A stretch of 64,000 bases of DNA from Escherichia coli (GCF_048403405.1 NZ_CP183131.1), one strand, 5' to 3'; counted from the stretch's first letter, positions 6,505-46,879 are shown. A program made the numbers and translations. Notes: generated from the letters alone by a model not told the origin.

Positions 6505-6996
6505 TTAGGACAAATTTCGGTCCATCCACGCTGATTGGCGTAGCAGCGCGATGGCATCAGAAGGGGTAACTTTCCATGCGTTGGAAAGCTGGCGAACTGC
6601 GAAGACTGCGAGCTCCATTCGGTCGTCATCATTGATGAAATTCTGGAGCTGGTTTCCTCGCTCACTAAGGATGATCGCAACACCGGCCTTGCCGTTGTTG
6701 TAAACCGCAAAGCTCTTATTCTTCGCGTCGCCGTGATAGGAACCCTCAGCCTTGCTACGCAAACCAAAGAGAACGCTGCAAAACGCCGTCAGTTCGCCGC
6801 GAGTGAGCTGCACCGTGATCTTGCTTTTCCAGTCTGGGCTGGACCCCGATGCCCTGATCGGCGCAATCTCGATGCTGACCGTAGGATATTCACCTCTGGT
6901 TAGCGTGTGTTGCACATTCAGGCCGGTGCGTTTCGCGGGGTCCTTCTGCCAGTCTGAGAAAAATTTGAGACTTTCGCCGTAGGATTGTTCTGTCAT
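6505..6996 (-). CDS. hypothetical protein (163 aa)
   Basis: Its start overlaps the stop of the upstream exonuclease gene (ATGA). No family recognised. Confidence 0.65.
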   Translation of the reverse strand: MTEQSYGESLKFFSDWQKDPAKRTGLNVQHTLTRGEYPTVSIEIAPIRASGSSPDWKSKITVQLTRGELTAFCSVLFGLRSKAEGSYHGDAKNKSFAVYNNGKAGVAIILSERGNQLQNFINDDDRMELAVFAVRQLSNAWKVTPSDAIALLRQSAWMDRNLS

Positions 6997-7862
6997 TCCA
7001 AATTACCTTTGCTTTGAAGCTCCTGGAGCTGGACCACGAGGTCACGTTGGACTTTGGCTATCTCTGTCACCAAGTCGGCGGTGGCAATAGCGTCGGTCGC
7101 TGCTGAATGGGCTCGACCTTTCCAGCTCACACCTGCCTCGCAGGTGGCATCCGCAAGTGAGATTGTGCCGTGCCGGTTGGTTGAGCCAAAGGCATCAGCC
7201 GCCAGCTTCATCGCGCACAGACAGTTCTGCTCTTGCCACCAAGAGAGTTGGTCTCCAAATGCACTGGCTGTTTGCCTCAACATCCTACTGTCGAAACTGG
7301 AGTTAAATATCACCAGATGACGGCCCGACAAAAGCCGGGCGAGAGCTGGCGCAACTTGAGTCCACGTAGGCTCATTCGACAGCTCAGTCTCGGTGATGCC
7401 ATGAACACCCATTGCCTGAGGGTCTATTTCCACGGTTGGCCGTAATCTGGTGCAGAGGAGAACCGCGCCTCTGATGTCAGTAACAGCCAGCTCGATCACC
7501 TGGTCTCTTTCACCAAGTCCGGTCGTCTCGGTATCGAGAACCAGAGGTTCCAGAGCGACCCACCTTTGTGCCATGACAGAGGCCTTTGCCAGGTTGCTAC
7601 GCATTCTTGCCTTGACCGAAAGGATGGATTGCGCCCTTATTTGCTTTTGTGATGCCGGTGAACAACCCCTTCTCCGCATTGGTTGGCAATCTGCTATCCG
7701 GTACACTCCAAATTGGCCACCATACCCGTTTTTGTAGAACGAAACTGGCTCTACTCCTGGCTTAGGCTTCATCCGAAATTCGTCCCTGAGCCGTCCTTTT
7801 GAAAAGCACCTATCGGCTTTCATGGCTTCGGCTCTGGCAAGTTCGAGTTCTTCATCATTCAT
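6993..7862 (-). CDS. DEDDh (DnaQ-like) 3'-5' exonuclease with N-terminal extension
   Basis: Exo I motif LVLDTETTGL and Exo III motif HSAATDAIATADL. Confidence 0.8.
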   Translation of the reverse strand: MNDEELELARAEAMKADRCFSKGRLRDEFRMKPKPGVEPVSFYKNGYGGQFGVYRIADCQPMRRRGCSPASQKQIRAQSILSVKARMRSNLAKASVMAQRWVALEPLVLDTETTGLGERDQVIELAVTDIRGAVLLCTRLRPTVEIDPQAMGVHGITETELSNEPTWTQVAPALARLLSGRHLVIFNSSFDSRMLRQTASAFGDQLSWWQEQNCLCAMKLAADAFGSTNRHGTISLADATCEAGVSWKGRAHSAATDAIATADLVTEIAKVQRDLVVQLQELQSKGNLE

Positions 7863-7866
7863 GCTG

Positions 7867-8877
7867 TTAATCCGCTATATCGAGGCGTTGGCTCGCTCTC
7901 TTCAAACGCTCATCGCCGCGTCTGTCATATTTCTGGGTAGTTGCAATGCTTGAGTGGCCCATTGCGTCCTTCACGGTCACAATATCCTCACCGTTATCCA
8001 GCATCGAGGAGGCAAAGGTGCGTCGCAGGTCATGGGGCGCAAACATCTCCAGACCGGCTTCAACTCTTCTGGTCTCCAAGATGTGGTAGATGGCCTGATC
8101 CGACATCCGCTCTCCAGTCACATCATCAAACCGCCTGATCCTCGGGAATAAAGGCCCTTCATGCGTTCCTCGAACCTCTTCAACCCACTTATCCAGTCTT
8201 TTCCATGCGCCACCAGGCACATACGCCATTCTCTCTTTGTTGCCCTTGCCAAGAACCTTGAGAGCGCGGTCCTTGTAGATCATGCTTCCCATGTCCAGCG
8301 CAACGATTTCCGAGCGGCGCAAGCCACACCCGAGGAGCACCCCGAGAATGGCCGCATCCCGAAGCCCTTTGGCGCTTGAATCACTTTCACATGTGAAAAA
8401 GAGGCTGCGAATCTCATGGCGTTCAAGTGCCCGCCCTTTAGGAAGTCGAGATCCACGTACTGAACGGACTTGCTTAATGTGCTGGAAGCTATCCGTATCA
8501 ATTTGCTTCATCGTCCAGGCTTCAAGAGCCACCCCTTTGAGCGCTGACAGGTAGGTGTTGATCGTTGCCGGAGCCTTCCCTGCATCCCCCAGCATTTCCA
8601 GCACCGCCAATATGTGGTGCCGCCTCATTGAGCTCCATGCACAGTCACGAAGGTTCTGAAACCCGATCATCTTGGCGACAATGTTGAGGAATGAGCTCAT
8701 GGTCTGCCTGCTTCGCTTTGACCCGAGGCTCACCAGATAGGCGACGGCGGGGTTGTCCTGGATGTTCCGGAGCGAGCTCGATGACGGCAACAGTTCACCG
8801 CGAATGCTTTGTTCTGCCGGAACATTTACTTTCGCATGTGAAACTAGCTCTTCCTTGTCATTGTTTGTGTCGTGCAA
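7867..8877 (-). CDS. int: tyrosine recombinase / integrase
   Basis: C-terminal catalytic motifs HDLRRTFAS and GHSSIATTQKY. Confidence 0.88.
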   Translation of the reverse strand: MHDTNNDKEELVSHAKVNVPAEQSIRGELLPSSSSLRNIQDNPAVAYLVSLGSKRSRQTMSSFLNIVAKMIGFQNLRDCAWSSMRRHHILAVLEMLGDAGKAPATINTYLSALKGVALEAWTMKQIDTDSFQHIKQVRSVRGSRLPKGRALERHEIRSLFFTCESDSSAKGLRDAAILGVLLGCGLRRSEIVALDMGSMIYKDRALKVLGKGNKERMAYVPGGAWKRLDKWVEEVRGTHEGPLFPRIRRFDDVTGERMSDQAIYHILETRRVEAGLEMFAPHDLRRTFASSMLDNGEDIVTVKDAMGHSSIATTQKYDRRGDERLKRASQRLDIAD

Positions 8878-33977: not shown

Positions 33978-34001
33978 CGATGCCACTGGGAAAGCAGGGG
34001 G

Positions 34002-34355
34002 TTAACCCCCCGCTTTAACCCGCGCTAAGCGGTTTAGGATAGACTTCACGCCTTCCCTTACTCCAGATGGATCGTAACCTGCTTCATCGCAGCAGACCAC
34101 AAATGAGAATGGATGTACCTCATCGGACATCACCCAAGCCATCGTTTCCTGCTTGATTTCACTTCCAGCTCGACCATCAGCAAGGACTCTAAGGCTATGC
34201 CATAAAAGCCCATCACGTAACTGCCTTACCTCATCATCAGTCCATTCAGGCTTTGGCTCAAATGGAATGACTTCTGCGGTCTTCGGCTCTTCATCCAGGA
34301 AGAAAAGCGGCAGCTCAAGCTGGTTTTCCTTCTGGATCATCTTCACTGCATTCAT
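34002..34355 (-). CDS. hypothetical protein (117 aa)
   Basis: Start MNAVKMIQ after AAGGAG. Last cistron of unit D. Confidence 0.6.
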   Translation of the reverse strand: MNAVKMIQKENQLELPLFFLDEEPKTAEVIPFEPKPEWTDDEVRQLRDGLLWHSLRVLADGRAGSEIKQETMAWVMSDEVHPFSFVVCCDEAGYDPSGVREGVKSILNRLARVKAGG

Positions 34356-34423
34356 GGTGACTCCTTTTACGGGCACCATGCCCCCACAGGGGCATGAAGC
34401 CCCCAGTGGGGTTACAGTCATAG

Positions 34424-34615
34424 TTACTTCACGCCTGCCAGTTGAGAATTGATGTTCTCTTCCAGCCAGCCTTGAAGCGATTCAAGGTCACGTTTGTCTT
34501 CCGTATTGCTGGCTTTACGTGCATCTTCCGACACAGCGCTCAACATGGCGTTAGCCTCAGCAAGTGATTCAACATTGTTCCCAGGGAACACAATCGTTTG
34601 ACTGTGATCTTTCAT
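34424..34615 (-). CDS. hypothetical protein (63 aa)
   Basis: Start MKDHSQT after AAGGAG. Confidence 0.55.
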   Translation of the reverse strand: MKDHSQTIVFPGNNVESLAEANAMLSAVSEDARKASNTEDKRDLESLQGWLEENINSQLAGVK

Positions 34616-34672
34616 GGTCTTCTCCTTTGAGAATGGAGGACCGTCTCCCATCAGGAAGAGCGGCCCCGTGGG

Positions 34673-34948
34673 TTAAAAGTAAAAATCCTCCAGCTCTTCA
34701 TGGTCAGGCTTTCGCTCAACTGGTCGAAGCAACTCAGCTTCATCAGCGAACTCAAGCTCAGGATGAAAAGCAGGATGAAATCCTCGATGCCAGACTGGAC
34801 GGTCATTATCGAGGTCTAAGTAGCAGTGCCTCCCACTGGCTGGGTGATAGCAGTAAAGCCACTGTCTACCACTAACGGTAAACGGCTTCTCTGCACCTCC
34901 ACATGCCGGTACAAGGTTATCTGCTGCTATATGCGCTACAGCATCCAT
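34673..34948 (-). CDS. hypothetical protein (91 aa) with acidic di-aromatic C-terminus ..EELEDFYF
   Basis: Start MDAVAHI follows GAGGA, 4 nt after the upstream stop. Confidence 0.55.
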   Translation of the reverse strand: MDAVAHIAADNLVPACGGAEKPFTVSGRQWLYCYHPASGRHCYLDLDNDRPVWHRGFHPAFHPELEFADEAELLRPVERKPDHEELEDFYF

Positions 34949-34952
34949 AGGA

Positions 34953-35405
34953 TCAGTCCTCATCTTCGTCATCACGAACACAAAGATCACGAGCAACTAT
35001 TTCCGCAGCTATCAACGCATAATCGTTGCCCTGCCAGAACCACCGCTCCGCCAGCTCATAGGCTTCGCTGGAAGGTTCGCCATAACCATGAGCCACCACG
35101 TAATCGTGGAACACTTCATGATCAAATGCCTTGCCATCAGCTTCCATGAACCAACCGACAGGGCACTCCAGAATGCGATGCCTTACGACATCTCGCTCTG
35201 AATACCCCTCTCTGACGGCTTGCTCCAACATTTCCCGCGACATACCAGGAGGAGTGATGATCTCTATGCTGATCCCGTCACTTCCTGCAAGATTGTCCTC
35301 GTATGGAAGACCGGCAAGTGTAAGGTGATTGCGCTTGCACCAGCCGATGGTCCGAAGTATCCGACTTTTGTCAGACTCCCTGGCCGTGTATCGGTTAAGC
35401 TGCAT
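34953..35405 (-). CDS. hypothetical protein (150 aa), C-terminus DDEDED
   Basis: Start MQLNRYT after GGAGG. Overlaps the end of the upstream gene. Confidence 0.6.
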   Translation of the reverse strand: MQLNRYTARESDKSRILRTIGWCKRNHLTLAGLPYEDNLAGSDGISIEIITPPGMSREMLEQAVREGYSERDVVRHRILECPVGWFMEADGKAFDHEVFHDYVVAHGYGEPSSEAYELAERWFWQGNDYALIAAEIVARDLCVRDDEDED

Positions 35406-35784
35406 AGCCACCTCCAGCACACTCCCCATCTTCGATTTCACTTCCGAGCTCGACCATTCCAATCAGGTCAAGCTGGGTCATGTCCGAATCCAGAGAGCAG
35501 TCAATTGCTGACTGAATGATGCCTTTGTGGGCCAAGCCTAAAACGGACTTAATAGTCGAAAGCAGAGACTCGGCTTCGCTCTCGATTTGCTCCAGAATGT
35601 CTTTCCATTCCCAGTGCTCAAACGGTTGCCAAACGACCAGATCCTCAGGCTCGTCTCCCCGTTCGACACACTCAGACAAATACTCATAAGCCTTGCACCA
35701 ATTCTCTTGTTGGCCCAGTTCACTGAGCACTAGAGCGGTAGCATGACCGTATGCGATTTGTTCAACTTTGGTATTGATAGACAT
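35395..35784 (-). CDS. acidic hypothetical protein (129 aa)
   Basis: GAGGAG SD. Strongly acidic composition, so a DNA-mimic or anti-restriction role is speculative. Confidence 0.6.
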   Translation of the reverse strand: MSINTKVEQIAYGHATALVLSELGQQENWCKAYEYLSECVERGDEPEDLVVWQPFEHWEWKDILEQIESEAESLLSTIKSVLGLAHKGIIQSAIDCSLDSDMTQLDLIGMVELGSEIEDGECAGGGYAA

Positions 35785-35845
35785 AGTGTTTCTCCTCGTA
35801 ATGGATAGAGGAGCCCCACCCGCAGGAAAGGCTCCTCCGGATGGG

Positions 35846-36070
35846 TTAAATTTCCAAGGTCACATCGGTTTTTGCTTTAGCGCAGCAAACCAACACTTCC
35901 CCTTCTTTGACAAATGCGATGGGCGTCTCGTCATAGGCCACTTGACCTTCGAGTAGACGAACCCGGCACATGCCACAAAAGCCACTGCGACAATGCGTTT
36001 CAACAGTGAGGCCTTTGCTTTCGATTTGCGCCAACAGCACATTGTTGCTGGCTTGAAGTTGTACGTTCAT
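35846..36070 (-). CDS. 2Fe-2S ferredoxin (YfaE-like, 74 aa)
   Basis: Cys pattern CRSGFCGMC..VLVCC. AAGGAG lies 7 nt before the ATG. Confidence 0.75.
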   Translation of the reverse strand: MNVQLQASNNVLLAQIESKGLTVETHCRSGFCGMCRVRLLEGQVAYDETPIAFVKEGEVLVCCAKAKTDVTLEI

Positions 36071-36135
36071 GGTCACGCTCCTTTGTTGTTGATGAGCGCG
36101 ACCAATCCCCTCCGGGATGTCACGCCCCGGTTGGG

Positions 36136-37020
36136 CTACTCAGCAAGTGCATAGACACCTACCTCGATGCGAATAAAGAACCTGGCATCTTGAAGAACTT
36201 GCCTGACCTTTGCTTGCCAGTGGTTGTTCTCTCGATGCTTTGCGTAGGGTTCAATCTCTTTGTAAATCTGCTCCAGCTTCAACGTTTTCCCCTGTAGGGT
36301 TCGGCGTATTGCAGCTTTCCACGTAGTCGAAACCATATTGGTTGCTCGACGGTGTACGGCAGCAAGAAGACAGAGCGATGAGGCAACGTCGTTACGACGA
36401 AACACCAACAGCTTTTCATGGGCGATACGCACCAGCTTCCCGGAATACTGAGTTCGGTCACTCACACAGTTGTGCTGTGTTTTGATGATCTCATCCACCA
36501 GCTTCCCAGGTGCGATACGTTCCACAAGGCTGGACAGGTTGAAATAATCCCCATCGCGCCTCAGGTTTCCCATGAGGATTCCGTAATGCCCTCCTCGCTC
36601 ACAGGCGTCATGAATATTCATAACGGCCAGCTCAAGGGCTTCAACGAACTCAGGCAAATTCATGCGGCTCATATCCCATTTGTTGGGCTCGCCCCACTGC
36701 TTACCTGAATACTGGATCATGTCCCAGTAAGGAGGGTGCCACCAGATCAGGTGTGCAGGCTCTCCGAGGAACGAAAGGAAGTCATCCCGCAACAGGTTGA
36801 ACCCCTGATGCAAGTCTGTCCCTTTGAAACGGACACCAAGTTCATTGGCAACGTCGATGCTAGAGCCACCCCCAACACTTGGGTCTGCCACCAGCCCGTT
36901 CGGCTTTCTCATGTAAGACTCAATGAAGTCTTTAACGATAAAGCCCGAGCAGTTGCCTCGGTACTTGTTGTTTCCGTAAGGCCCCCTGTTTTCGTAGGAG
37001 CATACTGATGATTTGAACAT
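36136..37020 (-). CDS. DNA N6-adenine/N4-cytosine methyltransferase (orphan)
   Basis: AdoMet motif ADPSVGGGSS and catalytic HPPY. No nuclease partner. Confidence 0.8.
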   Translation of the reverse strand: MFKSSVCSYENRGPYGNNKYRGNCSGFIVKDFIESYMRKPNGLVADPSVGGGSSIDVANELGVRFKGTDLHQGFNLLRDDFLSFLGEPAHLIWWHPPYWDMIQYSGKQWGEPNKWDMSRMNLPEFVEALELAVMNIHDACERGGHYGILMGNLRRDGDYFNLSSLVERIAPGKLVDEIIKTQHNCVSDRTQYSGKLVRIAHEKLLVFRRNDVASSLCLLAAVHRRATNMVSTTWKAAIRRTLQGKTLKLEQIYKEIEPYAKHRENNHWQAKVRQVLQDARFFIRIEVGVYALAE

Positions 37021-37093
37021 GGCGTCCTCCATCATAGATGGGGCGCACCATGCTCCCATCAGGGGCCGGTTCGCCCCTGGTTAGGGATTAAGA

Positions 37094-37594
37094 TCAAGCG
37101 TTATCTGCATACCACCAGCTAAGGCGATTGCAATCACGAAAGAAGGTTGCTTCATCAGGAGCCTTCATCATGACCACATCACCTTCGCAGTAGGTGCATA
37201 GCTCAAGCGTTGCTTCATTTTTCCAAAAGGCACTGCACCCCGATTCTTGATACACAACCTCCCATTTGGGATGTCGCAAGTACCGATGGAAGAAATCGAG
37301 AGTGTCACCATAAGGGAAGTTGAAGCGCTCCATCACTGAACCATTTTCTGTCAGTTCAGGTTTAACCTTGCCGGTTTTCAAGCGCTTCTTGATGATGCGC
37401 TGAACCCAACGAAGTCGTGCAAACAGCCGATTGGTGTCTTTCTCGTACCACTGGGGATTACGCTTGCTCCAGTAGAGCTTGGCGAAGATTTCCCCGGACA
37501 AATCCTTCATCTGGTTTTCGTTGAGCTCATCAAGAAAACGTCGAGAAGGTTTGTCGTAGTCAAGAACTGCTTCCAAAGCTGATAGGTTTTTCAT
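37094..37594 (-). CDS. hypothetical protein (166 aa)
   Basis: AAGGAG SD. No family recognised. Confidence 0.65.
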   Translation of the reverse strand: MKNLSALEAVLDYDKPSRRFLDELNENQMKDLSGEIFAKLYWSKRNPQWYEKDTNRLFARLRWVQRIIKKRLKTGKVKPELTENGSVMERFNFPYGDTLDFFHRYLRHPKWEVVYQESGCSAFWKNEATLELCTYCEGDVVMMKAPDEATFFRDCNRLSWWYADNA

Positions 37595-37684
37595 AGGGAC
37601 TCCTTATTGCGATTGCGGAGCCCCGTCCCCTCAGGGCTATCGGAGCCCCATAGGGTTAATTAGGGTTAATGGTTGAACGGCGAT

Positions 37685-38224
37685 TTATCGAGGGTTGGTG
37701 AATCGAATGGCTTTACCAACGAAATCGGCCATCAGTCGATTCCCAGTAGAGCTGAAATAGCTCTGCCACTCTTTCCAACCACCAACGGATTCCACCGAGC
37801 TTGGAGACTCGAAGATACCCCAGATACGCATTTCACAACCTCGTTGCAACACTCGGTTTACCTGGTCAACCAAGTATTCCTTGTTCTGCAATGAAGAGAG
37901 GTTGCAAGGCATCTGCATGATCAGCTTTTCAGCTTGCTCGAAGTCGATTTTTTCAATCAACCCCGTGCGGGTATCCACAGAGAATGGAACCACCTGTTGA
38001 CCGTGGTTAGACCACAACCAATGGGTGATATAGATCGGATTAACGCCAACTTCCGCTGGCACCAATACGCTGCCGCAAGACCGCAACAGCCAGACCAGAC
38101 GTAAACCATCGAATCGATCCAGAGACTCCACATCGGTAGTGATGTCATCCTGGTAGATTTCAGGCAGCTTATGTTCGGCGGCGAGAGAGATCATTACGGA
38201 TTTGAGATTGTTCAGATGAGACAT
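37685..38224 (-). CDS. hypothetical protein (179 aa)
   Basis: AAGGAG SD. First cistron of unit D. Confidence 0.65.
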   Translation of the reverse strand: MSHLNNLKSVMISLAAEHKLPEIYQDDITTDVESLDRFDGLRLVWLLRSCGSVLVPAEVGVNPIYITHWLWSNHGQQVVPFSVDTRTGLIEKIDFEQAEKLIMQMPCNLSSLQNKEYLVDQVNRVLQRGCEMRIWGIFESPSSVESVGGWKEWQSYFSSTGNRLMADFVGKAIRFTNPR

Positions 38225-38294
38225 GTGTGCTCCTTAAAGTAACTTGGGCACACAGAGCCTGTCAGGCGCAGTGCGCCCTTAGGCTGAGGTTGAA

Positions 38295-38352
38295 TGCTGT
38301 TTGTTTTTGGCGACCAGCTATCGCACGTTTCGCCCTCAGAGAGGACAAAATT
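38295..38352 (-). promoter_or_regulatory. P1-P2 leader element, copy D
   Basis: Sense AAUUUUGUCCUC-UCU-GAGGGCGAAACGUGCGA-UAGCUGG-UCGCCAAAAACAAACAGCA. Confidence 0.65.
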
Positions 38353-38444
38353 CACTTTCTCAGCAACCCTCAATGAAGGCCTCTGAGAAAGTGGGAGGGT
38401 ATTCCCTCCTCACTTTGATTGTTCCACGAGAGCTGTGTGAACAG

Positions 38445-38473
38445 GAACGCTCAAACTGCCCTTTTCGGGTGCA
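38445..38473 (-). promoter_or_regulatory. AcaCD/SetCD-type activator box candidate (unit D promoter)
   Basis: Sense TGCACCCGAAAAGGGCAGTTTGAGCG. Confidence 0.45.
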
Positions 38474-38488
38474 AAGCTCAAAGACGCA

Positions 38489-38824
38489 TCAACTGCCCCG
38501 TCTTTTCAGTTCTTCGACCAGATGTTCAGGCACCTTACTCGCAGTACAGGCCAGCAATACATCGAGGCCTACCGGCTTGTGAAAGCGCTTATTTGACCAG
38601 GAATCGCCAACTGATGACTTTGCCCAGTCGATTGCTTGCCCAAGACTGTGGAACTGCCGCCTGCCTGTGTATCCCATACGACTATCCAAAGTAACACCCT
38701 GGAACAGTCTCCAGTACATCGGAGGAATGCGCTTAGCAAGCAGTAAAAAAGGCGTCTCCGGCACTGTAGCCCTTCTACCTTTGTTCCGATGATACAAATC
38801 CAAAGATGAATGGAATTGGTTCAT
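38489..38824 (-). CDS. hypothetical protein (111 aa)
   Basis: GGAGAG SD preceded by a terminator-like hairpin. Confidence 0.6.
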   Translation of the reverse strand: MNQFHSSLDLYHRNKGRRATVPETPFLLLAKRIPPMYWRLFQGVTLDSRMGYTGRRQFHSLGQAIDWAKSSVGDSWSNKRFHKPVGLDVLLACTASKVPEHLVEELKRRGS

Positions 38825-38885
38825 AGACTCTCCAAATAAAAACGGCCACCCCCGAAGGGATAGCCGTTTGTCGTTTCACTTCCTG

Positions 38886-40682
38886 TTAAGCTGCAAAAGC
38901 AGTCAATGACCGCTCCATCAACTTAAACAGTGTGCGTTGCAGAGCTGCCGCATCATCAATGACAATGTTCTTTTGGAACAGTCCTGACACTGCGGTAGTC
39001 TCTACCCCTATGCCGATCACCTCAACATCGCTTCGTTCACAGAGGTCAATCACTGAGCGACATGCCGGGGCGCTTTGAGGCTGCCCGTCAGTCACTACGA
39101 TCAACATTTTTCGCTCTTCACGGGTCTTGGTGAGTTCAAAAGCTGCATACCACATAGCTTCCGCCATAGGCGTACCGCCAGTTGCTTTGAACCCAAACCG
39201 ACCGGCCCGATTCTGAACCGTATCTCCATGCTTCACGACACTGAACACTGGCTGGTTCCGGTTGCCACCAAAAAAGGTGACTGCCGGGTTTACGCCGGGT
39301 ATTGCTTCCAGAGCCATCGAAATAGCCAAGGACGCTTCCCGCGCAATGTCTTGACGCTCCTTTCCATTGGCGGCCTTGTAGGCCATCGAGGAGCTCATAT
39401 CAACCAGGATGTGAACCGCCGTATTAGGGCGTTTCTTGGCTTCCGGCTTGAGGAATACGCGGGTATCACCCGTCACTACACGATGTAGTTTCCGAGCATC
39501 CACACGCTTCCCTGATCGTTGGTTACGGTGAGCAACTCGCTGGCTGGCCTGGACCAATCCGTAGAGCTGCGTTCTTATCTTTGAAGTGGTGCTCTTCACA
39601 TCCCCTACCAGGCTTTTGCCAACAGCAGGGTTGTCCTGGGTGTTCACAGCAGAGCGAACAGTCATATAGCTACTGTCCCCCTTATCTTGAGCCACCCGGT
39701 TGAGCTCGGCTTTAAGTGCATCATGCGCGTCACCACGCAAATCACCGGCACCGGCATTCAGAACCTGCTGGAGCATTTTGGCCGCGTCTTGTTTCGCCGC
39801 GTCAGAATTGCCACCAGCCTGGCTTTGTCCTGCCTTGCTGCCACCATCAGTATCCGACTTGCCTTGGTCGCCCTGTCCTTTCGGATCAGATTTCCCGTTA
39901 GCATCGTCTTGCTTCTGGTCTTTACCTTGCTGATCACCACCATTGGCATCAGGCCCTTGGTTTTGATCGTTACCACTTCCGCCCTGACTGTTCTGAGGTT
40001 GGTTGCCACCAGCATTCTGCTGGTTGTTACCATCCTGACCATTCAGGGGCTTTTGCTCTTCTTTCTCCTTTTCCTCCTCGATCATCTTGATGATTTGGTC
40101 GGCCAAGGATGTCACCTCTGCGGTTGACTTAGTGTTCACAGCCTTACGCAGTAAAGCGTTCAGCCGAACAACAACACCCTGAGGGAACACGCGCTCGAAT
40201 ACGGGGGTAGCCGAATCGAGATAGGGTTGAAGGACGGATTGCCCTACAGCCTTGGTTTGCAACCAGTACAAACAAAACCCTGTCAGAATGGAGGCAGGGG
40301 CCTCTTTGTCTGTGACGTGCTCGTAATGACCAGCTTGAGCCATATAGCGAGCAACCTCATTCAGGGTCTGCGACGTACCGGGGAAGAGTTCCATCATGGC
40401 CCGTTCTATGCGGCAGTCCTCCAAAACGTTGGACAACTCAGCATGAAGACCTCTGCGGCGCTCAACACCAAAGTCCGTAAACCGGACATGGGCTGCTTCA
40501 TGGGCCAAATACCCCCAGACAGCATCCATGTGAGGATAGTCGTCGGGGATATTCGGAACCACGATGGTCTTACCATCGGTGTATGCGTCATCGTTACCGA
40601 TGGCGACTTTGACACCGAGTTTTTCACCATAGGCTGCGGCCACGATTGGTAGAGCGCTGTAAATGGTGCGTTTTTTGGACAT
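38886..40682 (-). CDS. CobT-like protein: N-terminal HExxH zincin-like region, Q/N/G/D-rich linker, C-terminal VWA domain
   Basis: AHEAAHV motif. MIDAS VDMSSSM. About 100 aa of low-complexity linker. Confidence 0.8.
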   Translation of the reverse strand: MSKKRTIYSALPIVAAAYGEKLGVKVAIGNDDAYTDGKTIVVPNIPDDYPHMDAVWGYLAHEAAHVRFTDFGVERRRGLHAELSNVLEDCRIERAMMELFPGTSQTLNEVARYMAQAGHYEHVTDKEAPASILTGFCLYWLQTKAVGQSVLQPYLDSATPVFERVFPQGVVVRLNALLRKAVNTKSTAEVTSLADQIIKMIEEEKEKEEQKPLNGQDGNNQQNAGGNQPQNSQGGSGNDQNQGPDANGGDQQGKDQKQDDANGKSDPKGQGDQGKSDTDGGSKAGQSQAGGNSDAAKQDAAKMLQQVLNAGAGDLRGDAHDALKAELNRVAQDKGDSSYMTVRSAVNTQDNPAVGKSLVGDVKSTTSKIRTQLYGLVQASQRVAHRNQRSGKRVDARKLHRVVTGDTRVFLKPEAKKRPNTAVHILVDMSSSMAYKAANGKERQDIAREASLAISMALEAIPGVNPAVTFFGGNRNQPVFSVVKHGDTVQNRAGRFGFKATGGTPMAEAMWYAAFELTKTREERKMLIVVTDGQPQSAPACRSVIDLCERSDVEVIGIGVETTAVSGLFQKNIVIDDAAALQRTLFKLMERSLTAFAA

Positions 40683-40766
40683 ATCTTTTCTCCTGGTAGG
40701 GAAGGAGATAGTCCACCCCTGGAGGGAATGGCTATCCCCTCCGGGTCGGTTTAGTTGAAGTGACTA

Positions 40767-42044
40767 TTAGAAGAAATAGTCGCCATCGTCGTCAGTTTTA
40801 GGCAGCTCCTGGTTGAGAGGCTCCTCTGTCGGCTCCTCTTGGACAGGCTCTTGCTCTACCGGAGTTTCCTCAGGCAAAACCGGCTCATCCTCAACATCAA
40901 CGCGCTCTTCTCGAACCACATCACCGGCATTGGATTCATCTTCCGATTCACCCTCGCCTCGTTCTGCAAAACTCTTGAAGAAGTTGTCGATGTCTTCATC
41001 CAGGTCAACAGCGTTACCACCGCTGTTAGTCTGTTCTGATTGAACAGATTCAGTACCACCTACCTGTTGCTGCTTGGTTTCGCCACCCTCTGTTGCAGGG
41101 ATAAGCTCACCGGCTTTATCGCTTTTCTGTTCGGCCTTTTCATCTTTAGAACGGTCCCCCATCTGGGCTCCCGAACCGCCAATGTCATTAGCCATGCCCT
41201 CTACAGTAATCGAGCCATTGGCATACTGCTCGATGCGGTCCCTCTCGCTCATGATCAGCACTGCGGCCACGACCTGATAAAAGAAAGGCGCAACGATGTT
41301 TCGGCCATCGGCATGTTGCTCGTATCCCCGGAGGGTTTGGTCGAGCAGCTTGACCAGAGGGTTAAAAGCGCTGTTCAGGAAGCTAAGCCCATCCACCTTG
41401 TCGCGGATGTTACGGAGTGTCTGCCGAGTAGTGACCGCACATTGGTCTCGACCGGCCAAACGTTCCATATAGAACTTATTCGCTTCCTGAACCACTTCGG
41501 AGATGAGATCGTCACCCAAGCGCTCAACCTTGCGGTTAAGGCGTTTGGCGTTGGCCTCATCTTCGTTCACAGGCTGGATCATGAACACCTGGTACTCAAA
41601 GCCAATCCGCTCCTCGACCGTTTCCTTTGGAAGGGCTCCGGCACGGATAGCTCGTTCATACTCAGGGTTCTCCTGACACCATTCATCCACGGCTTTGTTG
41701 TAACCTTTGATGAAATCCTGTTTCAGTTGGTTAAACTGAAAGTTTATGTCATTCAGCTTGTTACAGATTTCATCGGTCTTGCTGACGGGTACGGCAAATC
41801 CGTTCATGAACGGCATACCGAATTTCAGCAGGAGGCGACGAGTTTCTGTTTTCAGGCGATGAAAGCCTTTCAGCTTAGCCGGATCACAGATCTTCTTACT
41901 TCCCAGTTGAGCTACTTTCTCAGGTGGAATTTCACCACCCTCGCCCAGCTTGAGATCAGATGCAGACAAACGGGTTTGTCCACTCCAGATGTCAAAGTCT
42001 ACGTGGATAACACAGAGGCTTTGTAGATGGTTCACTTTAGTCAT
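40767..42044 (-). CDS. hypothetical protein (425 aa) with long acidic tail ending DDDGDYFF
   Basis: Start MTKVNHLQ after GGAGUGCAUC. First cistron of unit C. Confidence 0.7.
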   Translation of the reverse strand: MTKVNHLQSLCVIHVDFDIWSGQTRLSASDLKLGEGGEIPPEKVAQLGSKKICDPAKLKGFHRLKTETRRLLLKFGMPFMNGFAVPVSKTDEICNKLNDINFQFNQLKQDFIKGYNKAVDEWCQENPEYERAIRAGALPKETVEERIGFEYQVFMIQPVNEDEANAKRLNRKVERLGDDLISEVVQEANKFYMERLAGRDQCAVTTRQTLRNIRDKVDGLSFLNSAFNPLVKLLDQTLRGYEQHADGRNIVAPFFYQVVAAVLIMSERDRIEQYANGSITVEGMANDIGGSGAQMGDRSKDEKAEQKSDKAGELIPATEGGETKQQQVGGTESVQSEQTNSGGNAVDLDEDIDNFFKSFAERGEGESEDESNAGDVVREERVDVEDEPVLPEETPVEQEPVQEEPTEEPLNQELPKTDDDGDYFF

Positions 42045-42126
42045 GATGCACTCCAAAAAGTTGGGGGCGCACCACGTCCCGAACCGGGCGGATGCGCCCG
42101 GTTGGGCTAGTAAATTAACGTTAATT

Positions 42127-42185
42127 TGCTGTTTGTTTTTGGCGACCAGCTATCGCACTTTTCGCTCTCCGAAGAGAACAAAATC
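42127..42185 (-). promoter_or_regulatory. P1-P2 leader element, copy C (UUCG tetraloop in P1)
   Basis: Sense GAUUUUGUUCUC-UUCG-GAGAGCGAAAAGUGCGA-UAGCUGG-UCGCCAAAAACAAACAGCA. Confidence 0.65.
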
Positions 42186-42243
42186 TTGCTTTCCGTTGGA
42201 GACTCCCAGAATCCCCAAGGGAAAGCGGGGGAAAATCCCCCAC

Positions 42244-43254
42244 TCACCAGTAGAACGTCTCTACTTCTTCCGGCAAATCATCAAGAGGAGCAAGCACGTC
42301 CTCATCAACAATGTACCGTGGCTTCACAGAGCCAGTAACCGTTACACGGCACCGCTCTGATGACTTCTCTCTGTACTGGTCAACATCCTCAGGCTTCACG
42401 CCTGACGCCTTATCAGCCAACAGCTTTTTGTAGTCTACCCGGCCAGCCGCTTTGTATCTCGTTACCATCACACCGCAGTAGTCGGCATGGAAGTATTCCC
42501 CCATGAGGGACTTCATGGTGTCGAGATGAGGCTTTTGCCTTTCTTGAAGCTCAGACAGTCGCTGTTTCAGCTCCTGAATCTCAGCATCATAGAGGCGGTA
42601 TTCCTCAGCAGCAGCAATCCAACGGTTGACCTCTTCACCTTGCGGTATGTACAGGTCTCTCTCTGGATCTTTGTCGGGCTCCTTCTTGTCTACTACCTGT
42701 TGCCAGAACTTTTTAGCCTCGGCCAAGATTTCTTGAATCATGGCTTCGTCTCGGAGTATTGGAAACTCCTGAATCTGACCTTCAAAGTAGAAGACTAACC
42801 AGCCTTGCTTGGCCCCCGTTACCAGGAGCTGGTGTTGCACCTGCGGGTAATAAAGCTGGTATGCCTTGCTGTTTGCTTTCTCAGCACAAACATCTTCCCA
42901 GACAGTCGCACTCGGGCTTTTCAGCTCGACGGGCTCCCCGTTATCTCTCAGGCCATCCAGGGAGGCCCTCATGAGCGGGTATTGAACCGATTCGACACAG
43001 GCGGGGAGCAGCATGTCATCATACTTCTCCTCGAAAGCGCGTCTTGCAGCATCTTCGTTTTCTATCCCCCGGCGAACCAGCGGATTAAGACTCAGATCGA
43101 CTTCACGCGCATACCCAGTCTTCTCGGCCCACAGTCTCCATCGTGTTTTGTACGGAGACCGATTGAGCAGGATAGCGGCGTCAGTGGCTGTTACACCTTG
43201 ACGCCGCCAATCAAGCCAATCTTCCTCTCGTTGCGATAGGTTGACTATTTTCAT
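42244..43254 (-). CDS. exo: YqaJ/lambda-Exo-type recombination exonuclease
   Basis: N-terminus QREEDWLDWRRQGVTATDAAILL..SPYKT is typical of YqaJ-family nucleases. Adjacent to bet. Confidence 0.85.
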   Translation of the reverse strand: MKIVNLSQREEDWLDWRRQGVTATDAAILLNRSPYKTRWRLWAEKTGYAREVDLSLNPLVRRGIENEDAARRAFEEKYDDMLLPACVESVQYPLMRASLDGLRDNGEPVELKSPSATVWEDVCAEKANSKAYQLYYPQVQHQLLVTGAKQGWLVFYFEGQIQEFPILRDEAMIQEILAEAKKFWQQVVDKKEPDKDPERDLYIPQGEEVNRWIAAAEEYRLYDAEIQELKQRLSELQERQKPHLDTMKSLMGEYFHADYCGVMVTRYKAAGRVDYKKLLADKASGVKPEDVDQYREKSSERCRVTVTGSVKPRYIVDEDVLAPLDDLPEEVETFYW

Positions 43255-43319
43255 GGACCTCTCTCCAATGGTTAGGAGGGAGATCTCCCCCAGCGGGGGA
43301 GTCCCCCCCGTTGGGGTTA
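43255..43319 (-). promoter_or_regulatory. intercistronic RNA switch between bet and exo
   Basis: Sense UAACCCCAACGGGGGGGACUCCCCCGCUGGGGGAGAUCUCCCUCCUAACCAUUGGAGAGAGGUCCAUG. The bet stop is the UAA fused to CCCC. Confidence 0.55.
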
Positions 43320-44306
43320 GTAGTAACTGCCTTCCGCGCCCTCCTCTTCTGTAACAGGGATCATGTCCTCGTCACTCAAAGGCGGCATTTCTTCGGCACC
43401 AGGTTCAGCATTTGCAGAACCACCAGCGGCGGACTCTTGCTCGTGCGCTTCCTGGTAGTCAGGTTTCGGAGGCTCCATTTGATCCATCTCCTTGTCACGA
43501 AGGAATTGAGTCGCATATTGCAGTTCCGAACCTTCATACCGTCCCTTCACATACTCATGCGCCGCAGACCATGCGTTTTCAGCAATGGCGCGATTTGCGA
43601 GTTTGGTTAGGATCGGGTCAAGCTCTTTGTGCTCAATAGCCAAAGGCTCTTGGCTTTGAACTTGAGATGGTGAAGGGAGATTGGCAATAGCCGGGTTAAT
43701 GGCCGATGCCTGCTCCATTTCACGGATGCGTTCAGCTTCATCCTGGTCATAAATACCAGAGAAACCAAATGCGACACGAGAACACTGGATCAGCGACTTG
43801 TGCCGGAGTTGACGCTTGGTGTGCGTTTGCCAGGGGCCATCAACAGTGTAAGCACCATTGCGACCTTGACCCTGAAACGGTTCACGGTACACCTCATCAA
43901 TGAACTCCTTGATGCGGATAGGGCGAGATCTGTCCTTACGGTAAATCACGCATTCAATCCACTCAGGGCAGTCAACTTTCGCCCCCTGCATTCTGACCAT
44001 CTTGTCCGAATACACGAACTCGACGCCATCATACTGGGGATGCTCGTTGATGATGCGGCTCCAACCATCAACACCTACTACCGGAATGATCCCATTTTGC
44101 TTGTCAGGAAACGCATAGATTTCCCGAGTGAAAGGGTTCAAACCGTACTGTTCAGCCACGATCAGGAGCGTCATCATCTGCTCATCGGTCGGGGCACTTC
44201 CATCTCGCTGCTTGAATGCGGTCGCCTTCAAAGTTTCATAGAACTTTCGGGTGTCCACGCCAAACCGGCTTGCGATACGGGTTACAAGAGATTTGTTATC
44301 AGACAT
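43317..44306 (-). CDS. bet: lambda Bet-family single-strand annealing protein
   Basis: LIVAEQYGLNPFTREIYAFPDKQNGIIPVVGVDGWSRIINE is almost identical in pattern to lambda Bet. Confidence 0.92.
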   Translation of the reverse strand: MSDNKSLVTRIASRFGVDTRKFYETLKATAFKQRDGSAPTDEQMMTLLIVAEQYGLNPFTREIYAFPDKQNGIIPVVGVDGWSRIINEHPQYDGVEFVYSDKMVRMQGAKVDCPEWIECVIYRKDRSRPIRIKEFIDEVYREPFQGQGRNGAYTVDGPWQTHTKRQLRHKSLIQCSRVAFGFSGIYDQDEAERIREMEQASAINPAIANLPSPSQVQSQEPLAIEHKELDPILTKLANRAIAENAWSAAHEYVKGRYEGSELQYATQFLRDKEMDQMEPPKPDYQEAHEQESAAGGSANAEPGAEEMPPLSDEDMIPVTEEEGAEGSYY

Positions 44307-44400
44307 GGTGTTTCTCCAATTCACGAATGAACGGTTTGAGGACACCATGACCCCCTCGGGGCATGAGTGCCCCCGTGGGGTTTAGTAAGAGTTGGCGGTG

Positions 44401-44928
44401 TTACCCGCCAGCCAAGTGGTGCAGCCGCATGAACGGGATGTCATCATCCCAGCCATCAGGAGCGGGACCATAGCCTCCGCCCATACCACCTTGCGGTGCT
44501 GATTGCTGCACAGGAGCAGATTGCGTACCGGCTCCTGTACGTTGCCCTTTTTGGGGCGCTGCACGTTGAGAGTTGTCCTGAGGTGCATTTCCACGACCAC
44601 CAAGCATCTGCATTTCAACGCAGTGTACTTCGGTGGTGTAGCGCTCGATTTGTTGGCTGTCAGTCCACTTCCGGGTGCGGTTGCTCCCTTCGAGATAGAC
44701 TTGGGAGCCCTTTTTCAGGTACTCACCAGCGACTTCTGCCAAACGACCTTTAAGCACAATACGGTGCCACTCAGTATGCTCTCTTTGCTCGCCAGACTGC
44801 TTATCGCGCCACGTATCCGTTGTTGCAACGTTGAAGTTGGCAACGGCAGTTCCGCTTGGCATGTAGCGAATTTCCGGGTCAGAACCGAGATTACCGACCA
44901 GAATTACTTTGTTGACGCCTTTAGACAT
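44401..44928 (-). CDS. ssb: single-stranded DNA-binding protein with internal DDDIPF and 9-aa C-terminal extension
   Basis: OB-fold N-terminus [12 protein letters not shown]. Gly/Gln-rich linker. ..[16 protein letters not shown] stop. Confidence 0.9.
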
Positions 44929-44994
44929 CATGACCTCCAAGTTATTTGGAGAGGGCCAACGCCCCTTTCGGGGAGCAAGCCCCCGTAAGGGTTA
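44929..44994 (-). promoter_or_regulatory. intercistronic RNA switch upstream of ssb (GAAA loop; CUCCAA/UUGGAG SD hairpin)
   Basis: Sense UAACCCUUACGGGGGCUUGCUCCCCGAAAGGGGCGUUGGCCCUCUCCAAAUAACUUGGAGGUCAUGAUG. Confidence 0.55.
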
Positions 44995-45900
44995 AAAAAA
45001 GTGATCCTCTTGTTCGGCGTCGATCTCTGCCAGGCGAATCAGCTCAGATACAAGGCCAAGCCTTTCTGCATCTGCTCTTACTTCGTCGTAGCTGAAACCA
45101 AACCGTTCAATGAGGGGTTTTAGTGAATCAAAACGCTCGTAGTCGAAGGTATCACCCTGTTCATCACAGAATGCCACCAGCGGCTTCTCTACGTTTGAAA
45201 AGTCATCCGCGAAACGCTGTTGCAGGTAAACCAACATCAGCAGGGGTTTGTGACCATGTTCCGGGCGGAGTTCACCAGCGCCTTCCAGCGTAGCTGGATG
45301 GATAGTGTTTTCGCCTAGTCCAGTGCTAACCCCAAGCTCATAACCGCTGTCAGTACGCATCAGCACACTGGGTAGCAAGTCATTTGAGCCTTCGCTCCGA
45401 GCAACCTCAAAGCCGATTAAACCGGCTCCTTTGGCAAAAACCCCAGCAACAAAACCTTTGAAGAGGTTTATGTCACCTGGAGGTAACTCAGAGGGCGGAG
45501 ATAACAGCCAGTTGAGAGATCCCAAGCTGGCTGTTTGTCCGGCTGAAACATTCCCCCCTTCCAGCACCGTCTGTGTCTCTGCGTTTACCAGCACCTCATC
45601 CAGAAAGGTGTACCCCTGGCTGAGAAACTGTGACACATACTGGCTTTCTTTGTCCTTGTAGGACATTGGGATCGTGTCTGGGCCGTTAGCTTCAAAAGGT
45701 CCTTCGAGCTTTGTCTCAGACCAATTTTCAGCTTTCCCATCAGTGACGGTTCGGCGTAGCTCGACCATCGTGAATTGGCCTGGCTCCGAGGAGCTGGGCT
45801 CCCGGAGCAACTTGTAGCCAATGAAGACTTCTATTGTGGTTTCGTCATTGCCCCACTCTTTAGCAGTGTAACGACGGCACAAACAGTCATTTTTCTTCAT
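44992..45900 (-). CDS. hypothetical protein (302 aa), C-terminus ..AEQEDHFF
   Basis: Lies between the AAA+ gene and ssb. AAGGGG SD. Confidence 0.7.
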   Translation of the reverse strand: MKKNDCLCRRYTAKEWGNDETTIEVFIGYKLLREPSSSEPGQFTMVELRRTVTDGKAENWSETKLEGPFEANGPDTIPMSYKDKESQYVSQFLSQGYTFLDEVLVNAETQTVLEGGNVSAGQTASLGSLNWLLSPPSELPPGDINLFKGFVAGVFAKGAGLIGFEVARSEGSNDLLPSVLMRTDSGYELGVSTGLGENTIHPATLEGAGELRPEHGHKPLLMLVYLQQRFADDFSNVEKPLVAFCDEQGDTFDYERFDSLKPLIERFGFSYDEVRADAERLGLVSELIRLAEIDAEQEDHFF

Positions 45901-45910
45901 GCGTCACCCC

Positions 45911-46879
45911 TTAGCGCCATTGGTCCCCGAACACATCCTTCGCAACACGCAGGATGGCTTCACGCTCCTCTTTGGCCGCACGGATAAGCAGAGCTTGATC
46001 CAGGGCGTATTCAAGAGCATTTGGGGCACCACGGAACGCTAGAGACAGTTTCGCCCAACGCACCAACGTCCGAGTGGACATGGTGACGCTGATCTGACCA
46101 TCTTCACCGTTTTCGCCAAGAAACAGTTTGCGGACCTGATTAGCAATCCGAACCATTCCCTTCCGCACATTTTCCGGAAGTTTCGGAGTAACACGGCCAA
46201 GAATGCTGAGTTCAGCTTCCTCATCCGCATACCCTACTTTGGTGAAACGATAGCGATCCATAGCTGCGAGGTTCTGCATCATCACCCCCTGGTACAAACC
46301 AGAAGCATCACCGGACCCCGTAGAGTTACCAGTAACGACCACACGAAACATCGGGTGCGGCTTGATGATTTCCCCGCCATTCTGAGCGATCACAAGGGGA
46401 CGCCCTTCAAGGACATCGTTGAGACCAGCCAGCTCGGCAGGGTCGGCCAAATCCACCTCGTTGATGAGGAGCAGATGACCTTCACGCATAGCGACTGCCA
46501 GAGGTCCATACATGAACTTCATGACAGGTGGTTGACCAGGCTTTTCCGCGACCAGAGCGTGATGTCCAATCAGATCTGTCAGCTCCATCCGCCCGTGGGC
46601 AGTGATTTGCTGAACAGGCCAGTTGAGACGACCAGCGATCTCGGTGATACCTGAGGTTTTGCCAGACCCGGTAGGGCCGGTTACGAACAATGCGTCACCG
46701 CCAGGCTCTTTGAGATAGGCCAAGACCTCTCGCAGAAACTCTTTGCGGAAAACGTAGTTGGTATCAGTGGCAGGGATGAAAGGGTTTGAACCGTCAGCGT
46801 AGCCGATGGCCGTTACCTTCTCCGGAATGCTGGGCATACCGAAAACCTTGCTTACTGAGAATTGAGAGTATTGAGACAT
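45911..46879 (-). CDS. CobS/MoxR-like AAA+ ATPase
   Basis: Walker A VTGPTGSGKTS and Walker B LLLINEVDLA. Confidence 0.85.
   Translation of the reverse strand: MSQYSQFSVSKVFGMPSIPEKVTAIGYADGSNPFIPATDTNYVFRKEFLREVLAYLKEPGGDALFVTGPTGSGKTSGITEIAGRLNWPVQQITAHGRMELTDLIGHHALVAEKPGQPPVMKFMYGPLAVAMREGHLLLINEVDLADPAELAGLNDVLEGRPLVIAQNGGEIIKPHPMFRVVVTGNSTGSGDASGLYQGVMMQNLAAMDRYRFTKVGYADEEAELSILGRVTPKLPENVRKGMVRIANQVRKLFLGENGEDGQISVTMSTRTLVRWAKLSLAFRGAPNALEYALDQALLIRAAKEEREAILRVAKDVFGDQWR

Follow-up and report, generated by a model that had tools for sequence, protein, structure and literature searches.

Acidic and aromatic C-terminal tails shared by unrelated proteins of an IncC plasmid: a candidate docking motif for an element-encoded AAA+/VWA machine

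Why do several unrelated proteins encoded close together on a conjugative plasmid end in the same kind of short peptide? This question is raised by a 64 000-nt stretch of Escherichia coli DNA (NZ_CP183131.1), referred to here as the window. Its bases 34000-46000 were 100% identical to sequences of numerous IncC (A/C2) conjugative plasmids, among them NZ_CP054408.1 (typed as IncC, MOBH and MPF_F). The minus strand carries vcrx089, vcrx090, ssb, bet, exo, vcrx094 and vcrx095 in this order, and an open reading frame (ORF) of 91 aa lies further downstream. The tail-encoding genes are located within the 'host defence evasion' (hde) region that Roy et al. 2020 (PMC7498323) described. The genes vcrx089, vcrx090, ssb, bet and exo form a single operon, whose products act in the recipient and allow the plasmid to survive restriction and CRISPR attack on entry; vcrx089 and vcrx090 are an anti-type I restriction pair (PMC7498323). 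We read the shared ending, with moderate confidence and on the basis of sequence and analogy, as a client-docking motif for the CobS/CobT-like AAA+/VWA machine, with its DUF3150 protein, that the element itself encodes. The sequences show a real and conserved motif that co-varies within elements and is found together with the AAA+/DUF3150/VWA trio.

A preliminary description of the window had reported five proteins that end in acidic residues followed by aromatic ones. All five endings were confirmed at their minus-strand stop codons (Table 1). The last five residues are EDHFF in Vcrx090, EGSYY in Bet, ETFYW in Exo, GDYFF in the DUF3150 protein Vcrx094 and EDFYF in the 91-aa protein. In the same order, position -2 is F, Y, Y, F, Y and position -1 is F, Y, W, F, F, and the last 10 residues of each protein contain three to five Asp or Glu. 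The description had also claimed that no other protein of the region ends in this way, and a six-frame scan of the window bore this out: of the 341 ORFs with 50 aa or more, none but these five had an acidic run plus at least two aromatic residues within the last three positions. Three further di-aromatic ends in the window were non-acidic and belonged to probably spurious ORFs. In the remaining 84 kb of NZ_CP054408.1, the scan added LDEFF on APH(3')-Ia and ETFF on a hypothetical, membrane-like protein, and nothing else; apart from the five, the backbone of that whole IncC plasmid encodes no protein with an acidic/aromatic end.

Since only a small number of proteins in one window is concerned, chance could have produced the tails, or they might be an artefact of composition, for instance through a nucleotide-level signal where genes end. 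We compared the window with 80 related genomic loci and seven plasmid regions. In the 80 loci, about 0.5% of the long ORFs outside the module had a di-aromatic end (~3 of ~665, with the SXT-type Vcrx090 homologues counted as module members), and the expectation from composition was about 0.7%. With this background of 0.5-0.7%, the probability that at least five of ~70 genes have di-aromatic ends is about 1e-4, or about 1e-6 when acidity is also required. The distance from each stop codon to the following start codon is 21-199 nt, and the gene ends are thus free of any overlap constraint. Moreover, the tails were conserved at the protein level in more than 100 diverged homologues. Chance or composition can practically be dismissed as an explanation. 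Sequence comparison identifies the tails as a selected feature, since orthologues kept them while the linkers diverged.

The tails were conserved in the DUF3150, Exo, Vcrx090 and 91-aa families down to ~30-40% identity, and only partly in Bet. It had been expected that orthologues in IncA/C and SXT/R391 elements would keep them; this held for SXT Exo (SSFYF), the SXT DUF3150 protein (NSFYF) and the SXT homologue of Vcrx090 (QNYYF), but not for SXT Bet, which has no tail. Across relatives, the constant feature was the last two or three hydrophobic/aromatic residues. The acidic run was strong in IncC tails and weak in SXT/R391 and IncP-7-like tails.

In the DUF3150 family, nearly all intact proteins among 120 homologues (to 40% identity) end in [DE]n-x-[FYW][FW], with variants such as DDWGAW, WAW and LHW, and the ~130 residues before the tail are hypervariable. 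An AlphaFold2 (AF2) model of Vcrx094 contained a helical folded domain (residues 1-290) followed by predicted disorder (292-425) except for a helix at 348-362; the predicted confidence (pLDDT) was below 50 over 292-347 and 364-425, and the terminal tail had low confidence. The predicted short helix inside the disordered region coincides with an internal D[IL]DxFF copy of the motif in DUF3150 proteins, and a few homologues (P0073, P0077, P0083) end shortly after this copy. No informative structural neighbours of the DUF3150 protein were found. In the model, the DUF3150 tail is laid out like a short linear motif held by a flexible tether. The alignments agree, as they show a short conserved peptide after a poorly conserved, disordered region, and the Vcrx090 and 91-aa alignments were similar; over the families, the 20-130 residues before the tails are hypervariable or disordered.

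The other families differed in how faithfully they kept the tail. All 15 Vcrx090 homologues examined end in ..E[DN]xFF (one of them in NFYF), with an invariant terminal Phe. The 256-aa protein whose gene follows the AAA+ gene in SXT-type elements is remotely homologous to the Vcrx090 C-terminal domain, tail included (hhalign probability 96.9%, E 1.4e-10). A WGR-like N-domain suspected in these SXT-type homologues from their consensus had no Pfam support and was dropped. The AF2 model of Vcrx090 (pLDDT 85) has two domains and a low-confidence tail. In the 91-aa family (17 homologues), a conserved Cys/His-rich N-domain (..PACGG..C.YHP.S.RHCYLD..) is followed by a variable linker, and about 10 of 11 intact homologues end in an aromatic pair (e.g. 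D[FLC]YF, SFYW, DFFF, NLYF). For Exo, 65 of 138 full-length representatives of 50%-identity clusters have a di-aromatic end and ~11 more have near variants. Many tail-less Exo proteins are shorter, with their ends close to the limit of the part alignable to the IncC protein, which gives linker and tail together the look of an added module. The Azospirillum Exo orthologues (L021-L024, ORFs at ~6900-8040) have no aromatic tail and end in ..VAAAA or ..AVAA, an ssrA-like degron ending. Bet matched Pfam RecT and NCBIfam bet_lambda, and its tail follows an acidic, proline-containing linker. It is the least conserved of the five: di-aromatic ends occur in about 7 of 22 lineages, and in some the sequence D[DN]FF is internal, with acidic residues after it.

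The tail therefore occurs on unrelated folds: RecT, YqaJ, DUF3150, the Vcrx090 family, the 91-aa family, DUF5983 and others. These include lineage-specific extras, namely three paralogues in locus L080 and a DUF5983 protein in L084. Its wording was shared within an element. In the IncP-7-like plasmid, Exo ends in FFGTFWF and the DUF3150 protein in PFGTFWF. The endings were FCL, FCF and FCM in L084; WFF on four proteins in L080; AWF, CWF and AWF in L070; TLF and FLF in IncT; VVF, MVF and IVF in L090; FYF, YYF and FYF in SXT/R391; and a mix of F, Y and W in IncC. Thus, several distinct dialects (C, L, V, W) each appear on two to four unrelated proteins. The penultimate residue was identical in 52% of between-family pairs per element, versus 26% when the tails were shuffled among elements within each family (0 of 20,000 shuffles); for Exo versus DUF3150 alone, the values were 48% and 19% (2 of 20,000). 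The preliminary description had proposed that the five proteins share a docking site. The co-variation of tails on unrelated proteins supports this indirectly, and judged from these sequences they very probably do share one.

A comparable arrangement is known from bacteriophage T7, in which gp2.5 (the single-stranded DNA-binding protein) and gp4 (the helicase-primase) have acidic, Phe-terminated tails that use common binding sites on T7 DNA polymerase. In both cases, different proteins of one mobile genome have like tails and, for T7, the common receptor is encoded by that genome. The T7 receptor is a DNA polymerase, however, and none is present here; the plasmid tails are also more aromatic, and acidity is dispensable in some lineages. 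Proteasome activators dock through HbYX motifs, in which a C-terminal hydrophobic-Tyr/Phe-X sequence inserts its free carboxylate in pockets of the ring partner. The FYW and FYF plasmid tails fit this pattern, but the plasmid hosts have no 20S proteasome, and the last tail residue is constrained (mostly Phe/Trp) whereas X in HbYX is free. Full-text literature searches returned no published description of the plasmid motif. C-terminal docking peptides as such are known; what is new is the arrangement, in which many clients, one inferred element-encoded receptor and element-specific dialects come together.

The likeness to the C-terminal tip of SSB (single-stranded DNA-binding protein), to which the tails had been compared, was partial. 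Like that tip, they end in an aromatic residue after a run of acidic ones and are held on a long flexible, disordered linker, and in both systems one short peptide serves many interactions. The Pro at -2 of DDDIPF is absent from all five, and none of the orthologue tails seen in the DUF3150, 91-aa, Exo and Vcrx090 families had it; aromatic residues occupy -2/-3 instead, in element-specific dialects. SSB presents one peptide carrier to many pockets, whereas here there are many carriers and presumably one pocket. The SSB of the plasmid itself continues for nine residues past its tip. SSB family models end at residue 167, the Phe of DDDIPF, and extensions of 9-11 residues past IPF recur in related elements (MRLHPLEGG, ARLHYMAGG, AKVPYLCML, APISRLLLNII). 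The Phe carboxylate that clients of the SSB tip normally bind would thus be masked. In a Shewanella profunda element (L002, 7106-7663), the SSB frame shifts before DDDIPF although the element is otherwise 97% identical; this is a natural variant or an assembly error.

It is possible, but doubtful, that the tails imitate the SSB tip or a peptide of the clamp-binding type and dock on a host hub, which could be the SSB-tip pockets of RecQ, ExoI, PriA, RecO and similar proteins, the OB fold of host SSB or the beta sliding clamp. Such docking would plug the recombination and anti-restriction proteins of the plasmid into host DNA metabolism. It would fit the acidic, aromatic-ended IncC tails on flexible linkers, the presence of the DNA enzymes Exo and Bet among the clients, and the capped plasmid SSB tip, which could leave host pockets free for the tails. 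The beta clamp binds motifs of the type QL[SD]LF or QLxLxL, and the xLF ends of IncT resemble the last two positions of these. However, no IncC tail has the Pro at -2 of the SSB tip. The clamp pentapeptide has Gln at its first position and aliphatic residues at its second and fourth, but the last five residues of the IncC tails contain neither a Gln at -5 nor any Leu. The weak acidity of the SXT and IncP-7-like tails and the persistence of tails on Vcrx090-like and DUF3150 proteins where Exo or Bet lack them also speak against a host hub. The dialects add a further argument. The genus Providencia hosts IncC, an SXT-type element, IncT and pC131, and the dialects differ between these elements; F/Y, L and V dialects among elements of the same genus are unexpected for a conserved host pocket and point to an element-encoded receptor.

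Which element proteins accompany the tails, then? The loci of tail-bearing Exo that we inspected (IncC, SXT/R391, IncT, IncP-7-like, pC131, Azospirillum and Methylococcaceae elements) all had AAA+, DUF3150 and VWA genes. Among all the loci compared, the trio was incomplete only where a contig end cut the locus and in L017, a locus from a metagenome-assembled genome in which no AAA+ gene was detected. In the IncP-7-like plasmid, the trio lies ~14 kb from ssb-recT-exo. A vcrx089 relative was present in 77 of the 80 related loci and in all six related plasmid regions inspected, and a vcrx095 relative was present in 80 of 80 loci. Among the matching records listed, none was obviously a plasmid with vcrx089-090 but without DUF3150/VWA; nearly all 824 matches were large conjugative plasmids. 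All tail-bearing elements found were MOBH/F-type conjugative elements, with TraN and other tra genes flanking the module.

The receptor is quite unlikely to be a recombination protein of the same operon. According to this proposal, the tails would assemble an SSB-Bet-Exo complex on the plasmid SSB or on a Bet ring, as Redbeta binds lambda Exo and SSB. The genes ssb, bet and exo are adjacent and act together, Exo and sometimes Bet bear tails, and a specific interaction between exonuclease and annealase partners is known (PMC11611040). Yet the tails are most constant on the DUF3150 and Vcrx090-like proteins. L080, whose fetched locus yielded no ssb, bet or exo, kept four tails. In Azospirillum (L021-L024), Exo and Bet are tail-less while the neighbouring Vcrx090-like and DUF3150 proteins retain aromatic tails. 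VBR1 plasmids have no ssb (PMC12753305), and an ssb relative was found in only 56 ORFs over the 80 loci. The L080 and Azospirillum cases suggest that the tail system belongs to the AAA+/Vcrx090/DUF3150/VWA core, with Exo, Bet and the small proteins as optional members.

The sequences of Vcrx089 and Vcrx095 are those of a MoxR/VWA machine: an AAA_5 core with a CbbQ_C lid, a VWA domain with MIDAS (DxSxS..T..D) and a hydrophobic C-terminus on the VWA partner. The nearest solved relatives of Vcrx089 were midasin AAA domains and CobS (E 5.6e-32), followed by NorQ and CbbQ. Against the NCBIfam CobS equivalog it scored 104.7 bits, far under the cut-off of 558.55, which indicates a CobS paralogue and not a true CobS. 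No CobN was annotated in the retrieved IncC record outside ~19-46 kb and 130-148 kb. In Vcrx095, a long low-complexity linker joins the HExxH N-domain to the VWA domain, whose MIDAS is intact, and the protein has the hydrophobic end ..SLTAFAA; its nearest solved relatives were the VWA domains of NorD-type proteins. The HEAAH, ED.RIE and MIDAS D.S.S / T / D residues were essentially invariant over 22 lineages (HEAGGH in Azospirillum), and homologues end in ..SLTAFAA, ..LLIAA or ..LLIQ, all hydrophobic. The HExxH with the downstream ED.RIE makes up a gluzincin-like signature.

Two studied machines suggest how tails could be received by such a complex. The VWA protein of NorQD docks through its final residues (..LVA) on the post-sensor-1 loop, within the MoxR ring; deletion of two C-terminal residues abolishes the complex, and the C-terminus of CbbO, which is likewise needed, has been inferred to behave in this way too (PMC13036017). 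Vcrx089 shares the ATPase class, the last two or three hydrophobic residues are decisive in NorQD, and Vcrx095 itself ends in ..L.xxAA. The NorQD tail, however, is aliphatic and sits on the VWA adaptor, whereas the plasmid tails are aromatic and sit on putative clients. In CobSTN, the CobT N-domain, of M48C-like fold, binds the small AAA+ subdomain, and the client CobN lies between that N-domain and the VWA domain, near the MIDAS (bioRxiv 10.64898/2026.07.21.739949). Common to CobSTN and the plasmid system are an AAA+ protein and a partner made of an M48C-like N-domain, a disordered linker and a VWA-MIDAS domain, and in CobSTN the CobT subunit holds the client; the plasmid system differs in its remoteness from the CobS equivalog, its lack of a CobN, its conjugative setting and its putative DNA-repair and anti-restriction clients. 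With these precedents, the AAA+ subunit and the VWA subunit are each plausible receptors for hydrophobic/acidic C-terminal tails.

We therefore favour, for the tail, a role in client docking on this machine. The motif would consist of two or three aromatic/hydrophobic residues at or beside the free C-terminus, usually after acidic residues, on a flexible linker, and would tether a changeable set of clients to one receptor encoded by the element. The clients would be the anti-restriction protein Vcrx090, Exo, sometimes Bet, the DUF3150 protein and small proteins like the 91-aa one. The receptor would most likely lie in the conserved core, namely the Vcrx089 AAA+ hexamer, its VWA partner Vcrx095 or possibly the folded domain of the DUF3150 protein. 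By analogy with CobS-CobT-CobN and NorQ-NorD, anti-restriction and break-repair activities might in this way be gathered on one ATP-driven complex soon after entry into a new cell.

Alternatively, the tails might be degrons that time the removal of early establishment proteins, through a host protease such as Lon or through the AAA+ protein and the HExxH VWA protein of the element. The essentially invariant HExxH...E of Vcrx095 beside an AAA+ partner would suit a protease, the tails are exposed, C-terminal and hydrophobic, and some Azospirillum Exo proteins have the ssrA-like ..VAAAA in their place. But the MoxR/VWA machines studied so far remodel their clients and do not degrade them (PMC13036017; bioRxiv 10.64898/2026.07.21.739949). 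For the CobT N-domain, the description is limited to an M48C-like fold and to the binding of CobS and CobN, with no peptidase activity reported (bioRxiv 10.64898/2026.07.21.739949). Element-specific dialects would also be unexpected for a degron read by a host protease. We regard the degron function as unlikely.

The preliminary description had further suggested a secretion signal of a type IV secretion system (T4SS), by which the coupling protein TraD would recognize the tails and the proteins would travel with the DNA into the recipient. Substrates of the Dot/Icm (type IVB) system are known to have Glu-rich C-terminal signals; like the plasmid tails, these are acidic C-termini with hydrophobic residues near the end, in a T4SS-containing setting. 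That the module was found only in MOBH/F-type conjugative elements is in accord with this suggestion, and no DUF3150 relative was found in phages in two collections (a phage collection and IMG/VR). The genetic results argue otherwise: vcrx089-090 and ssb-bet-exo mutants were complemented only by expression in the recipient, and not in the donor (PMC7498323). In addition, the scan of the whole IncC plasmid found no di-aromatic end on the MobH relaxase, an obligatory substrate, or on MobI, TraD or the primase. The plasmid T4SS is also of type F and not type IVB. A translocation signal is thus very unlikely, and this part of the earlier proposal is not supported.

Several points weigh against docking on the core machine. 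We infer the docking role, the element-encoded receptor and the binding subunit, and it is co-occurrence and analogy that place the receptor in the core. Because the lineages compared for co-variation are related by descent, the shuffle counts overstate the significance. Host lineage could add to the dialects in the Methylococcaceae and Azospirillum clades. A few homologues have one or two residues past the aromatic ones (FFP, YFG, FYLN) or an internal copy, which indicates that the free carboxylate is not strictly required. The depletion seen by transposon insertion sequencing was confined to vcrx089-093, and the five-gene hde cluster does not include vcrx094 (DUF3150) or vcrx095 (VWA) (PMC7498323); in that assay, Exo and Bet had no visible need for the DUF3150 and VWA proteins. 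The post-sensor-1 loop and the helix-2 insert of the AAA+ protein vary by clade, with no interpretable match to the dialects. In these two segments and in the pre-sensor-1 hairpin, the variation tracked phylogeny. Finally, the CobS/CobT pairs of phages had no clear set of tails: the phage-plasmid CMS-2020a had none and phage ICP2 had one neighbour ending in HWWW, which indicates that the tail code is not general to CobS/CobT.

Beyond docking as such, we put forward more tentatively that MOBH elements (IncC/IncA, SXT/R391, IncT, IncP-7-like and relatives) might encode an 'establishment complex', an AAA+/VWA motor that would recruit Vcrx090, Exo, Bet and DUF3150 proteins through an element-specific aromatic code. 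Such a complex would physically couple the removal or neutralization of host nucleases to recombinational repair of the incoming DNA, and the dialects would insulate co-resident elements from each other. A co-evolving docking tail would tie the hde, DUF3150 and VWA genes and Bet/Exo into one physical network and would explain why these genes travel together. It would also extend the emerging rule that MoxR-class AAA+ machines assemble through extreme C-terminal residues, and it could be relevant to the unexplained presence of CobS/CobT genes in many phages. Multidrug resistance is carried to a large extent by IncC plasmids and SXT/R391 elements, and three-residue deletions and dialect swaps are simple handles to dissect or block plasmid establishment.

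Table 1. Tail-bearing genes and accompanying genes in the window, with the positions of their C-terminal motifs
Feature	Coordinates	Strand	Product	Tail or motif
vcrx089	45911..46879	-	CobS-like MoxR-class AAA+ ATPase (Pfam AAA_5 + CbbQ_C); candidate receptor/motor	no tail
vcrx090	44992..45900	-	302 aa; no Pfam family	AEQEDHFF 44995-45018 (with stop 44992-45018)
ssb (vcrx091)	44401..44931	-	SSB	DDDIPF 44431-44448, then nine-residue extension MRLHHLAGG 44404-44430
bet (vcrx092)	43317..44306	-	RecT/Redbeta-family annealase	EEGAEGSYY 43320-43346 (with stop 43317-43346)
exo (vcrx093)	42244..43254	-	YqaJ/lambda-exonuclease family (Pfam YqaJ)	EEVETFYW 42247-42270 (with stop 42244-42270)
vcrx094	40767..42044	-	DUF3150 protein (Pfam), 425 aa	DDDGDYFF 40770-40793 (with stop 40767-40793)
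vcrx094, internal second motif copy	40977-41006	-	residues 347-356	DLDEDIDNFF
vcrx095	38886..40682	-	CobT-like (Pfam VWA, CobT, CobT_C); candidate client adaptor/receptor	
91-aa gene	34673..34948	-	unannotated; Cys/His-rich N-domain, variable linker	EELEDFYF 34676-34699 (with stop 34673-34699)

The 91-aa gene is not called by PGAP/RefSeq, which instead calls an overlapping hypothetical ORF on the plus strand (34633-34875). No homologues of this plus-strand ORF were found in the related loci, and to judge from the sequences, IncC records seem to be systematically mis-annotated at this position. Immediately upstream of the 91-aa gene lies a gene (34953-35405, minus strand) whose product has a purely acidic end, ..VRDDEDED, without aromatic residues. 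On the traN-proximal side of the module, beyond vcrx089, lies a divergently oriented gene of 233 aa (48142-48843, plus strand). Its product is a homologue (27% identity, E 5e-20) of proteins that related plasmids list as transcriptional regulators of the AcaB family, and it has relatives in 65 of the related loci.

Among phages, Exo homologues were less than 30% identical, and CobS-like genes occurred in more than 500 phage records, mostly from cyanophages. The lytic Vibrio phage ICP2 (L091, 32020-36230) has adjacent genes for a CobT-like gp41 and a CobS-like gp42 in its early region, and gp38 (261 aa), encoded just upstream of this pair, ends in ..VLVHWWW.

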